Shown here: positions 1 to 13,562 of the stretch, in pieces
Layout: every line of letters starts with the position of its first letter
Numbering within the stretch: the stretch's first letter is position 1
Virus record (IMG/VR): IMGVR_UViG_2585427753_000009
Length of the DNA: 13,562 bases
Origin: a virus
Lineage: Duplodnaviria > Heunggongvirae > Uroviricota > Caudoviricetes
Direction: 5' to 3' (one strand)
Translations under genes and position numbers: made by a program
Notes under the pieces: model-generated
Seen by the model: the letters and a program-made list of their open reading frames with translations, nothing else
What the model was told of the DNA's origin: nothing
Databases searched by the model: none

Positions 1-429
1 CTTTTGGGGAACCAGGATAGGCAAGCGGAAACGCCAGCGGCATGGCCAGAGCAGGGGAACACCGGCGGGTGTCAGCATATCGGCAAGTATGTGGCTCAAA
101 TAACCCAGCACCATACCCTGCAACGCATCAGCCGGAATGAACCAGCTTTCAGGAACCTTAAGGTAAAAGGTTGCCAGCAGCGCAAATACCGCCAGCAGAC
201 TGTGGGTAAAACCACGATGCCCAAAAGCGCGGGCGATCGGTTTTGATATCCACTTTAATCGCTGCCCAAGAAACGACTTTGGGTGATCGATGTCCGGTAA
301 CAAACACGTCAGGATTGCGGAAGGGACAATATGCCACCAGTCACCCTGTGCCAGCACGGGCGTCAGCTCGGCATTTTTGGCAAATACCGCACAAGCAATA
401 GAAAAGAGAAGGTGACCTTCCGCCGTCAT
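1..429 (-). CDS. ydjM: SOS-regulated inner membrane protein YdjM-like (5' part only; gene continues past window start)
   Basis: Minus-strand frame from ATG (complement of 427-429) translates MTAEGHLLFSIACAVFAKNAELTPVLAQGDWWHIVPSAILTCLLPDIDHPKSFLGQRL..., hydrophobic throughout and matching my recollection of E. coli YdjM. A LexA box sits immediately upstream. The + strand ORF 4-246 is antisense to it. Confidence 0.7.
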   Translation of the reverse strand, partial: MTAEGHLLFSIACAVFAKNAELTPVLAQGDWWHIVPSAILTCLLPDIDHPKSFLGQRLKWISKPIARAFGHRGFTHSLLAVFALLATFYLKVPESWFIPADALQGMVLGYLSHILADMLTPAGVPLLWPCRWRFRLPILVPQK

Positions 430-443
430 GATAAAACTCACTA

Positions 444-463
444 AACTGTCGATACGTACAGTA
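444..463. promoter_or_regulatory. LexA (SOS) box upstream of ydjM-like gene
   Basis: AACTGTCGATACGTACAGTA fits the CTGT-N8-ACAG palindrome of the LexA consensus and lies 15-35 nt upstream of the ydjM-like start codon. An additional CTGT/ACAG half-site follows at 476-479. Confidence 0.55.
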
Positions 464-644
464 TAGGGTTTTTATACAGTGCACGGAAGTGGTGACGGTG
501 TAACTCTTTCTCTTAAATTGGCGATTAATCCGTCAGTTGAATGCAAATTCAGATAAAGAACCAGGGTGATGCGCCGCGCGATAAATGCACTCTATCTTGT
601 GCGATAAATGGCATCCACGCGGCGTTTCATTATTTGAAAAAGAA

Positions 645-1217
645 TTACATTTCAGGTCGCGTTATGACAGTCCCAACAGGGTGGTAGCGGTAGATCGTTG
701 ACAGTCCAATATCATAGATAATTGCCAGCCGCTTTCTGTCATACCCTTTCTGGAGCAATCTTGCGATCTGCTCATGCTGCTCCTTCGTCAGTTTCGGGCG
801 ACGTCCTCCAACTCTCCCTTGTGCTCGCGCAGCAGCCAGTCCTGCCAGCGTGCGCTCAACTATCAGTTCACGCTCCATTTCTGCCAGTGCACCCATCATA
901 TGAAAAAAGAACCTTCCCATCGGAGTGCTGGTATCGATTGAATCCGTCAGACTGCGAAAATTGACACCTTTTGCGCGTAGCTCTTCTGTGAGAGCAATGA
1001 GGTGTTTCATTCTTCTACCCAACCGATCCAGCTTCCAGACCACCAATGTATCCCCTCTTTTAAGGCACTTTAAAGCGCGTTTCAGGCCTGGTCGTTCCGA
1101 CTTGGTTCCGCTCATTTTGTCCTCAAAAATCTGTTCACATCCTGCGCACATTAATGCATTGCGTTGCAAATCTGTGTTTTGGTCATTTGTTGACACACGT
1201 ATGTAGCCAATCAGCAT
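645..1217 (-). CDS. Serine DNA invertase (Hin/Gin/Pin/Cin family), copy 1
   Basis: Translation MLIGYIRVSTNDQNTDLQRNAL...VVWKLDRLGRRMKHL...GRRPKLTKEQHEQIARLLQKGYDRKRLAIIYDIGLSTIYRY has the N-terminal catalytic serine motif (YIRVSTNDQ) and a C-terminal helix-turn-helix like Hin/Gin. The ORF-track start at 1346 is a read-through extension; the real start is ATG at 1217, preceded by AAGGGAG with 7-nt spacing. Confidence 0.9.
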   Translation of the reverse strand: MLIGYIRVSTNDQNTDLQRNALMCAGCEQIFEDKMSGTKSERPGLKRALKCLKRGDTLVVWKLDRLGRRMKHLIALTEELRAKGVNFRSLTDSIDTSTPMGRFFFHMMGALAEMERELIVERTLAGLAAARAQGRVGGRRPKLTKEQHEQIARLLQKGYDRKRLAIIYDIGLSTIYRYHPVGTVITRPEM

Positions 1218-1271
1218 TAAAAATACTCCCTTTTGAGTGGTTAAAGTACTGAGATAATGTGGGGAGGATTT

Positions 1272-1297
1272 GAGAGATAAACGTTGGTTTGGGGGAA
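1272..1297 (+). other. Candidate hix/gix-like crossover site A (core AAACGTTGGTTT at 1279-1290)
   Basis: AAAC-N4-GTTT core resembling the hix/gix AAACC-NN-GGTTT pattern, about 60 bp upstream of invertase copy 1 and at the exact start of the sequence shared by all three fiber cassettes. The same core recurs in inverted orientation at 2894-2905 and 3366-3377. Confidence 0.55.
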
Positions 1298-1452
1298 GGC
1301 TCTGCATTGCCTGTTGGTGTACCGGTTCCGTGGCCCACCGCCACACCGCCAGAAGGCTGGTTAAAGTGCGACGGGCGCGCCTTTACAAAAGAACAATATC
1401 CTGTTCTGGCCAGAGCCTACCCGACCCTCCGTCTTCCCGATTTACGCGGTGA
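1279..1452 (+). repeat. 174-bp inverted repeat, arm A (perfect match to complement of 3204-3377)
   Basis: By-eye comparison: 1279-1452 equals the reverse complement of 3204-3377 with no mismatch; the first mismatch is at 1453 versus 3203. Encodes the conserved N-terminal 'collar' part of the cassettes. Confidence 0.8.
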
Positions 1453-1801
1453 GTTTATCCGTGGATGGGACGACGGGCGCAAAGTTGATACAGGACGTAA
1501 GTTGCTGTCCGCACAAGGGGCAACGCTGTTAAGAACAGCAATGCTGGATTATTATAACCAGGACACTACGGGAACCTCGGGGATAGTCGGCATGGGATTC
1601 AACAATGAAGATTCCATTACAGACCTTCGTGAGGGCAGCTTTAAAATGCCGGACGGGACAACATTCAGCGATCCTGTCGTGGCAATGTCAGACAATGGTA
1701 TGCAGGCTACTATTCTGACCTCTATCAGAAGCGGGTATGCGAAGGGTATCACTGTCAGACCCCGTAGCATTGCACTTAATTACATTGTGAGGGCAGTTTA
1801 A
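1289..1801 (+). CDS. Tail fiber C-terminal variable cassette A (no start codon; frame open from 1274)
   Basis: Translation (NVGL)GEGSALPVGVPVPWPTATPPEGWLKCDG...PDLRGEFIRGWDDGR...NYIVRAV: the conserved junction segment shared by P2 H, Mu S and P1 S fibers plus a tail-collar-like motif. The only in-frame start is TTG; an in-frame stop lies at 1271-1273, so it needs fusion to an upstream constant region. Its stop overlaps the start of the downstream tfa (TAATG). Confidence 0.8.
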   Translation: MGEGSALPVGVPVPWPTATPPEGWLKCDGRAFTKEQYPVLARAYPTLRLPDLRGEFIRGWDDGRKVDTGRKLLSAQGATLLRTAMLDYYNQDTTGTSGIVGMGFNNEDSITDLREGSFKMPDGTTFSDPVVAMSDNGMQATILTSIRSGYAKGITVRPRSIALNYIVRAV

Positions 1802-12492: not shown

Positions 12493-12519
12493 CAAAAAAA
12501 CCACCCGAAGGTGGTTTCA
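12493..12519 (-). terminator. Intrinsic terminator of the glyW-cysT-leuZ tRNA operon
   Basis: Minus-strand AAACCACC-TTCG-GGTGGTTT followed by TTTTTTTG, about 40 nt past the tRNA-Leu 3' end. Confidence 0.7.
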
Positions 12520-12559
12520 CGACACTGCTTATTGCTTTGATTTTATTCTTATCTTTCCC

Positions 12560-12646
12560 ATGGTACCCGGAGCGGGACTTGAACCCGCACAGCGCGAACG
12601 CCGAGGGATTTTAAATCCCTTGTGTCTACCGATTCCACCATCCGGG
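12560..12646 (-). tRNA. leuZ: tRNA-Leu (anticodon UAA)
   Basis: Reverse complement reads GCCCGGATGGTGGAATCGGTAGACACAAGGGATTTAAAATCCC...GGGTTCAAGTCCCGCTCCGGGTACCA: 87 nt, long variable arm, encoded CCA. Confidence 0.93.
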
Positions 12647-12658
12647 CTCGGGAAGAAA

Positions 12659-12732
12659 GTGGAGGCGCGTTCCGGAGTCGAACCGGACTAGACGGATTTG
12701 CAATCCGCTACATAACCGCTTTGTTAACGCGC
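12659..12732 (-). tRNA. cysT: tRNA-Cys (anticodon GCA)
   Basis: Reverse complement GGCGCGTTAACAAAGCGGTTATGTAGCGGATTGCAAATCCGTCTAGTCCGGTTCGACTCCGGAACGCGCCTCCA, 74 nt. Confidence 0.93.
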
Positions 12733-12786
12733 CAAATTCTTCAGGCCTTTCAGCCAGACATCCGCTGCCGCCGATGTCTTTTAAAC

Positions 12787-12862
12787 TGGAGCGGGAAACG
12801 AGACTCGAACTCGCGACCCCGACCTTGGCAAGGTCGTGCTCTACCAACTGAGCTATTCCCGC
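12787..12862 (-). tRNA. glyW: tRNA-Gly (anticodon GCC)
   Basis: Reverse complement GCGGGAATAGCTCAGTTGGTAGAGCACGACCTTGCCAAGGTCGGGGTCGCGAGTTCGAGTCTCGTTTCCCGCTCCA, 76 nt. Confidence 0.93.
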
Positions 12863-13013
12863 ATTCATCAAGCAATCAGTTAATCACTTGATTTTATTAT
12901 CGTCTGGCAATCAGTGCCGCCGTTCGATGCGTTGCATTCTACTTACCTGGCGCGATGAGTCAACGATATTTTTCACCACTTTTGATCGTTTGCTGAAAAT
13001 TGCGCCGAAACGA

Positions 13014-13562
13014 TCACTGATCAAGCAAATCTGCACGCGCAGCGCTCAAATATTGCAACATTGACCACAGAGTCAGTACCGCAGCCACAAAGAAAAGTGC
13101 AATACCGGCGTACTCAACCCAAATGTTCGGACGCCACAGCAGCCAGGCTAACGCCACCATCTGGGCAGTGGTTTTCACTTTCCCAATCCAGGAGACAGCC
13201 ACGCTACTGCGTTTACCCAACTCCGCCATCCATTCGCGTAGCGCAGAAATAATAATTTCACGGGCGATCATCGTTGCTGCCGGTAAGGTCACCCACCAGC
13301 TGTGGTAATGCTCGGTTACCAGCACCATGGCGATAGCCACGAGAACTTTATCTGCGACAGGGTCAAGGAAAGCACCAAACCGGGTACTCTGATTCCAGCG
13401 GCGTGCCAGAAAACCATCGAACCAGTCAGTCACCGCCGCGACGCAGAAAATGAGCGCGGCGGCAAACGGCGACCAGGTGACAGGCAAATAAAAGACCAAT
13501 ACAAAGAATGGGATAAGGATGACACGGAACAGTGTAAGCAACGTAGGGATATTAAATTGCAT
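13014..13562 (-). CDS. pgsA: CDP-diacylglycerol--glycerol-3-phosphate 3-phosphatidyltransferase (phosphatidylglycerophosphate synthase)
   Basis: Complete 182-aa [75 protein letters not shown]..., with the CDP-alcohol phosphatidyltransferase motif D-x2-DG-x2-AR; matches E. coli PgsA as I recall it, in the expected position next to glyW-cysT-leuZ. Confidence 0.95.

Follow-up and report, generated by a model that had tools for sequence, protein, structure and literature searches.

The DNA analysed here (the window, 13,562 nucleotides of IMG/VR virus record IMGVR_UViG_2585427753_000009, Caudoviricetes) leads from the host gene ydjM through two prophage fragments to the tRNA gene leuZ. Where the fragments—one Mu-like, one P2-like—meet, the window contains three invertible fibre cassettes and three 26-bp crossover sites. 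We lean toward reading the join of ydjM to leuZ as a wrong assembly path through a repeat common to both prophages. The chromosome would carry two prophages in the same orientation ~197 kb apart: a Mu-like prophage between hxpB and ydjM, whose right end and invertase gene gin lie beside ydjM, and a P2-like prophage at leuZ. Both would hold a near-identical module of one fibre cassette (Sv1) and the tail fibre assembly gene (tfa)—over 1284–2188 presumably identical save one codon (~0.9 kb), and up to ~1.2 kb long as judged by relatives. A local flip of the Mu-like invertible segment would first give rise to reads joining gin to Sv1; the assembler would then cross the shared Sv1–tfa repeat and emerge in the P2-like prophage. 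The contig would in this way pass from the Mu-like prophage, at the gin-adjacent site or shortly past it, into the P2-like cassette array, and the chromosome of most cells would keep the K-12 order. A real inversion is possible, with about a third of the probability.

The window represents the first 13.5 kb of JORF01000015.1, a short-read draft contig of 130,741 bp from an Escherichia coli of the B2 lineage. Window 1–12373 corresponds to the reverse complement of JORF01000015.1 1–12373 (GCA_000713045.1) with 0 mismatches, and window position 1 is the first base of this contig. As a single piece, the window occurs in 0 of 5,426 complete E. coli genomes, and exact-pattern scans of GTDB genomes and JGI metagenomes gave no match to the junction of ydjM with the Mu-like prophage. 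The order of invertase 1, cassettes, and invertase 2 was confirmed in the sequence and comprises the following features:

567–644, no strand assigned: right end of the BcepMu-type transposable prophage, beginning with TGATGCGCCGCGCGATAAATGCAC (host/phage junction at 566/567)
645–1217, minus strand: invertase 1, an intact Gin-family serine recombinase of 190 aa (Pfam Resolvase and HTH_7)
1272–1297, plus strand: crossover site A, GAGAGATAAACG TT GGTTTGGGGGAA, with the gin-adjacent left half and the central TT at 1284–1285 (site table)
1289–1801, plus strand: fibre C-terminal cassette Sv1, lacking a constant part (Pfam Collar)
1801–2415, plus strand: tfa, with P2-type alleles at 2188 and 2394 (Pfam Caudo_TAP)
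2422–2895, minus strand: fibre cassette Sv2 (Pfam Collar)
2887–2912, minus strand: crossover site B, with the internal-type left half GGCATAAAAACG (site table)
2906–3370, minus strand: fibre cassette Sv3 (Pfam Collar)
3359–3384, minus strand: crossover site C, with the invertase-2-adjacent left half AAAACGAAAACG (site table)
3439–4038, plus strand: invertase 2, an intact Gin-family serine recombinase of 199 aa, 86% identical to invertase 1

Sister assemblies and the shared Sv1–tfa module

The read set that gave the window also contains the parental gin junction of the Mu-like prophage. A second contig of the same assembly, JORF01000060.1 (1,847 bp), is identical to window 1–1302 and then continues into another, c-type cassette and the 3′ end of a Mu-type tfa. 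Hence, the 1.3-kb block from ydjM to gin occurs in two contigs, and the parental junction, which an inversion should have removed from the isolate, is still found there.

The Mu insertion is common to five sister draft assemblies and one SRA run, and the sister contig JORA01000015.1 (379 kb) displays the uninverted parent. It bears gin–ydjM–tcyP–cedA–katE at 1–7 kb and, at 192.8–211.6 kb, an intact P2-like prophage (H, tfa, Sv, Sv, invertase, U, T ... hok) together with pgsA and uvrC; it is colinear with K-12, both prophages have the same orientation, and the two candidate recombining sites (roughly at 790 and 197,512) are ~197 kb apart. Two more sister contigs (198 and 193 kb) begin in Mu-like cassettes and have sizes that would fit an end in the P2-like cassettes.

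The window follows these sister sequences almost without difference. On the Mu/ydjM side, 1–1283 shows at most one difference (position 70), and 1284–13562 has 2 mismatches in 12,279 bp to the sister P2-like prophage (1679 and 1681, in one codon). Relative to the window, the sister Mu-type tfa has just three differences, at 2188, 2394, and 2449 (G, G, and C in the window; A, A, and T in the Mu type)—the last of these markers being located just downstream of tfa and likewise bearing the P2-type allele in the window. P2-type identity from 1284 on, together with the tfa marker at 2188, places the Mu-to-P2 switch within 1284–2188. With only three markers to tell the Mu-type tfa apart, the shared repeat is too long for short reads to phase.

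Two attempts to narrow this interval were set aside. The differing codon (1679–1681, Sv1 residue 131) is GTG for Val in the window and ATA for Ile in the sister P2-like copy and most relatives; as a marker of Mu origin it was rejected, since Val occurs in Mu-like and P2-like contexts alike, including sister-project assemblies; Ile, too, is found in prophages of both kinds elsewhere. A comparison of single-nucleotide polymorphisms with unrelated Mu-like and P2-like prophages was undecisive for placing the crossover, since both families bear the same cassettes.

The join of gin to Sv1 has a simple local source. Related Mu-like prophages natively carry gin|Sv1–tfa and are 99.2–99.7% identical to window 567–2466 or beyond, so that local flipping alone gives this junction. 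The cassette order beside gin and beside invertase 2 varies among sister and related assemblies, and the differing flip states of the sister-project assemblies argue that flipping is active. For a P2-like prophage of the enteropathogenic E. coli (EPEC) strain E2348/69, mixed flip states were described within clonal cultures (Goldberg et al. 2014, PMC4272514); combined with the varied sister flip states, this means that gin|Sv1 reads are to be expected from local inversion. A flipped Mu-like segment would offer up to ~1.2 kb of near-identity to the P2-like copy—a length that would allow for homologous recombination as well as for a wrong assembly path.

The contigs themselves end 69 nt beyond variant positions, and sister contigs stop inside the shared repeat. 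This behavior suggests a de Bruijn short-read assembly with k ~70. Position 70, within ydjM, varies among the sisters, and contig ends fall at window 1, 71, 2074, 2119, and 2325. The presence of two alleles in one read set is suggested as well, from either a mixed culture or cross-sample reads.

From the co-occurring parental junction and the sister order, we infer a wrong path rather than a real inversion. An unresolved repeat is a more economical explanation of the join than an inverted chromosome in this isolate.

Inversion models and strain 4/0

The earlier note had stated that ydjM (beside yniC) and pgsA with its tRNA genes (beside yecA and uvrC) lie ~180 kb apart in K-12, and had proposed an inversion through the fibre segments of two prophages, provided that ydjM is on the opposite strand there. 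The K-12 annotation agrees on each of these points: ydjM is encoded on the plus strand at 1,810,211–1,810,801, immediately after hxpB (yniC), and leuZ, cysT, glyW, pgsA, and uvrC are encoded on the minus strand at 1,991,815–1,994,706 beside yecA, with 181 kb between the two regions. In the window, the ydjM–LexA side (1–481) and leuZ–cysT–glyW–pgsA (12561–13562) share the minus strand. Hence, a true join can only come from an inversion that has one endpoint upstream of ydjM and the other beside leuZ. A deletion was rejected because it needs ydjM and leuZ on one strand from the beginning; it would also remove presumably essential genes such as gapA, aspS, and argS.

The alternative offered by the same note—a native adjacency of ydjM and leuZ in a different ancestral order, with no rearrangement at all—is refuted and retains next to no probability. 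In the phylogroup B2 strain NU14, hxpB and ydjM are adjacent, with 100% identity up to the insertion; the sister contig keeps the K-12 order over ~200 kb with the prophages ~197 kb apart; and none of the 5,426 complete genomes holds the window in one piece. We found no point in its support.

Every Sv begins at a 26-bp site. In a comparison of eight loci, the central TT and the right half GGTTTGGGGGAA are invariant and the left half is one of four kinds (gin-adjacent, invertase-2-adjacent, internal, and fibre-constant), of which the fibre-constant one, TCCTCAATTACC, does not differ between the S gene of Mu-like and the H gene of P2-like prophages. With these invariant halves and the common fibre-constant half, the two families use interchangeable sites and largely the same cassettes; the site comparison thereby bears out the presumption of crossover sites common to both prophages. 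Window 1279–3372 shares 99.5% identity with the Mu-like prophage of EC190759, and 1281–4600 shares 99.5% with the P2-like prophage of DA33135. Homology breaks coincide with the central TT, and homology to Mu-like prophages stops in site C at 3372–3378.

Two side observations concern these sites. When window 1240–1283 is compared with the S and H genes, the terminal 32 nt or more of the fibre constant part, with TCCTCAATTACC among them, prove identical between S and H in phages that are otherwise unrelated. At the gin-adjacent site of JONF01000093.1 (~828–836) and JORA01000015.1 (~783–791), a single T replaces TT; a real 1-bp deletion should disable the site, and a sequencing error may equally be the cause.

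If the join is real—which we hold to be possible, albeit doubtful—the Gin-family invertases of unrelated Mu-like and P2-like prophages would carry out exchange between the two prophages, and ~197 kb of core chromosome would become one giant invertible segment. Its inversion may be reversible and affect a subpopulation; both junction types in one read set would then be explained. As a specific event, a ~197-kb inversion by a Gin-family invertase, fixed or in a large subpopulation, would have joined the gin-adjacent site to the constant-end site of the P2-like fibre. We consider this event unlikely, even though its ingredients are in place. The two sites are in inverted orientation; the geometry fits, with the prophages co-oriented in the parental contig and ydjM and pgsA on opposite strands in K-12; both invertases are intact and 86% identical; and all sites have the same right half. 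P2-type identity begins at the central TT (1284) and the sister cassette diverges at 1303, which makes the 19-bp interval the site core. Moreover, prophage invertases act in trans, as PinQ does on e14 (PMC12529663).

Against these ingredients stand the parental gin|c-type junction in the same assembly, the uninverted sister isolate, and the one codon (1679 and 1681; V131) that differs from the P2 copy of the lineage. The model also predicts a reciprocal junction, in which the H and S constant parts face each other across the Mu-like cassettes; it was not seen in the contigs examined. Finally, synapsis in the Hin/Gin invertasome needs an enhancer and a supercoiled branch, and sites ~197 kb apart are expected to recombine rarely.

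A second route to the same inversion is RecA-dependent homologous recombination within the Sv1–tfa module, with the Mu-like segment flipped so that it is inverted to the P2 copy. The Mu-to-P2 switch, being bounded only to 1284–2188, leaves room for it, and the V131 codon (GTG at 1679–1681) is found in Mu-like contexts elsewhere and would fit a crossover between 1681 and 2188. Homologous inversions between prophages are known from E. coli O157, according to what PMC6379469 and PMC13492144 give of Iguchi 2006. On the other side, the parental junction is in the same assembly, the sister isolate is uninverted, and V131 is also found in P2-like contexts, including sister-project assemblies, and hence does not mark Mu origin. 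Altogether, we judge this route improbable, more so than the site-specific one.

A complete genome shows that such events do occur. In strain 4/0 of sequence type 131 (ST131; NZ_CP023849.1, an accession that appears in an ST131 genomic study), the order is serS–[P2-like right arm–invertase]–cassettes–[gin–Mu end]–aroA, and aroA...pflB...dmsA is inverted relative to K-12 and DA33135. The inverted segment spans ~48 kb (dmsA to aroA plus prophage arms), with junctions at ~952.7–958.5 kb and 1,000–1,004 kb. At the reciprocal junction, ~45 kb further, the H constant part, attached to the P2-like left arm, and the S constant part of the Mu-like prophage face each other across cassettes—the very product with two constant parts that the inversion model predicts. 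From the central TT on, junction 1 shows 2.8 kb of 100% identity to the AVS0542 P2-like prophage, and the nearest ST131 Mu-like cassette (PV468777.1) reaches only 97% identity over 210 bp; taken together, this maps the exchange in 4/0 to the site itself. For the invertase model, strain 4/0 thus provides an exchange at TT with the reciprocal junction present. A composite query (Mu end and gin joined to invertase 2, U, and T) retrieved strain 4/0 alone, i.e., 1 of the 5,426 complete genomes, which keeps the prior for a real event low. DA33135 was considered as a parent of 4/0 and rejected, as it bears no Mu-like prophage at aroA.

A related database record deserves mention. PV468777.1 (1–40277), from ST131, is deposited in GenBank as a "complete phage genome"; it contains a P2-like left arm, 16 kb of host genes (dmsABC, pflAB, focA, ycaO, serC, aroA), and a Mu-like gin end, and hence comprises parts of two prophages and of the chromosome, not one phage.

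Several of these points weigh against a wrong assembly path. Strain 4/0 is a real event of exactly the same kind, with both junctions. Identity of the window to the lineage's P2-like prophage sets in precisely at the central TT (1284) of site A, and all six sister contigs have the c-type cassette beside gin, which first differs from the window at 1303; the pattern over 1284–1302 is what a site-specific exchange would leave behind. If the Mu-like segment was in the flip state of the sisters, the switch would be confined to this 19-bp site core, which would argue for site-specific recombination. The identity of the lineage's own Mu-like Sv1 to the P2 copy over 1284–2187, a premise of the wrong-path reading, is extrapolated from relatives, and the analysis covers assembled contigs.

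The inversion model of the earlier note is therefore best divided. It is mechanistically sound: its geometry, its shared sites, and the precedent of strain 4/0 hold. Its application to this isolate meets a draft contig end, a parental junction in the same assembly, and a join that lies inside a shared repeat.

Both outcomes have consequences. If the join is an artefact, prophages of different families share invertible fibre modules, and draft contigs across these can fake large rearrangements; "phage genome" records from such regions can also contain host DNA, of which PV468777.1 is an example. If the join is true, host-range switches of phages would also rearrange the bacterial core genome, and ~197 kb would be reversed relative to replication; with a hybrid end on each prophage, excision or packaging of an intact phage genome would be impossible for both. 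Strain 4/0 demonstrates that such a rearrangement can happen and become fixed, and is the more interesting lead.

Host flanks and prophage arms

The outer parts of the window contain these features:

1–429, minus strand: the 5′ 143 codons of ydjM (Pfam YdjM, E 1.5e-35)
444–481, no strand assigned: ydjM promoter region with the LexA-box core CTGT-N8-ACAG at 446–461
4065–4559, minus strand: U (P2-like homology, Pfam)
4566–7373, minus strand: T, the tape-measure protein of 935 aa (P2-like homology, Pfam)
~7360–7898, minus strand: E/E′ (P2-like homology)
7954–8466, minus strand: tube (P2-like homology, Pfam)
8466–9650, minus strand: sheath (P2-like homology, Pfam)
9808–10917, plus strand: D (P2-like homology, Pfam)
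10960–11220, plus strand: ogr (P2-like homology, Pfam)
11412–11552, plus strand: hok (open reading frame)
11553–12560, no strand assigned: end of the P2-like prophage, then an AT-rich spacer to leuZ (homology to serS-located relatives ends at 11674)
12561–12862, minus strand: tRNA-Leu(taa), tRNA-Cys(gca), and tRNA-Gly(gcc), i.e., leuZ, cysT, and glyW (ARAGORN, K-12 annotation)
13014–13562, minus strand: pgsA, complete (gene call, homology)

Both host flanks are what the earlier note had taken them for. On the left, the Pfam domain identifies ydjM, and the pattern CTGT-N8-ACAG of its LexA box at 446–461 was observed once against 0.12 matches expected by chance; 462–481 probably contains a second LexA box, in line with the published ydjM boxes. 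Window 1–566 is 100% identical to phylogroup B2 E. coli, e.g., NU14 and ATCC 11775. In NU14, hxpB (yniC) is next to ydjM and its stop lies 27 bp past the point that matches window 566, which positions the Mu-like insertion between hxpB and ydjM, 27 bp from the hxpB stop. On the right, ARAGORN finds the three tRNA genes, followed by the complete pgsA.

The sequence 567–1400 recurs at ≥99% identity beside many unrelated genes (irp2, rstB, dgcQ, ybaP, malE, yehQ, and others). In strain 83972, the full element of ~37.7 kb interrupts rstB and is annotated with a DDE transposase, an ExeA/MuB-like protein, Gam, and Mor; the counterparts of these genes lie outside the window, as does the left end beside hxpB. 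This variety of chromosomal sites and these genes identify 567–1283 as the right end of a BcepMu-type transposable prophage plus its invertase. The element upstream of ydjM to whose right end invertase 1 had been attributed is hence this prophage. The same Mu-like right end occurs in AVS0969 (NZ_CP124475.1), where it interrupts a "metal-dependent hydrolase"; that this gene might be ydjM was rejected, since it is ybcI beside cysS and unrelated to the source. The insertion into ybcI, a YdjM-family paralogue, is taken as coincidence.

Both recombinases fit the Gin/Hin/Pin/Cin invertases by their domains (N-terminal catalytic Resolvase, E ~1e-51; C-terminal HTH_7, E ~1e-12), the serine motif YIRVST, their similarity, inverted 26-bp sites with a 2-bp core, and alternative orientations. 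Invertase 1 matches the Mu Gin structures 3UJ3 and 4M6F with E 1e-93 over residues 1–181. In the annotation of the source contig, it is represented by 121 aa only (645–1010), although the 190-aa reading frame is intact. The protein of invertase 2 is very common, which makes its look-up uninformative.

The second prophage is P2-like: its right arm runs from 3373 to ~11674 and is located at the usual leuZ site. Over 4065–11552, it is 95–98% identical to annotated P2-like prophages, and its gene order (invertase, U, T, E/E′, FII, FI, D, ogr, then the host tRNA) is that of P2-like phages (Peduoviridae). Between the prophage end and leuZ, 11741–12500 is AT-rich (39% GC over 12001–12500), and a 131-aa reading frame there (11741–12136, minus strand) has a counterpart in strain O18 that is annotated as hypothetical.

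Comparison with known systems

The G segment of Mu, the C segment of P1, and the P segment of e14 resemble the window in that a serine invertase lies beside the segment, the sites have 26 bp with a 2-bp core and sit at the junction between the constant and the alternative C-terminal part, and tfa lies inside the segment. The window differs from them by its three cassettes and three sites with one tfa, by the missing constant part, and by an invertase on each side.

The P2-like prophage of EPEC E2348/69 has three partly homologous inverted repeats that give four variants and three fibre C-termini (PMC4272514). Its inversions take place inside one prophage, and no exchange between prophages was reported there. 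In the large inversions of E. coli O157:H7 (Iguchi et al. 2006, cited in PMC6379469 and PMC13492144), two prophages likewise serve as endpoints; there, long lambdoid homology recombines by the general pathway, and invertase sites play no part.

Fibre segments were exchanged among P88-like (P2-like) and phiE255-like (Mu-like) prophages of ST131 wound isolates (preprint 10.1101/2022.05.07.487787). The prophage pairing is the same as in the window, the GpH/S fibres are homologous, and the switch points have a ~70-bp repeat in common; the exchanges were described as local switches and a translocation, not as a chromosomal inversion. The literature searched yielded no account of prophages inverting DNA between them at invertase sites, which is no proof of absence.

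Strain 4/0 matches the window in its two prophage families, in its site sequences, and in the invertase–cassettes–invertase junction. It differs in the location of its prophages—the P2-like one at serS, the Mu-like one beside aroA—in being a complete genome with both junctions, and in a breakpoint at TT without long flanking homology.

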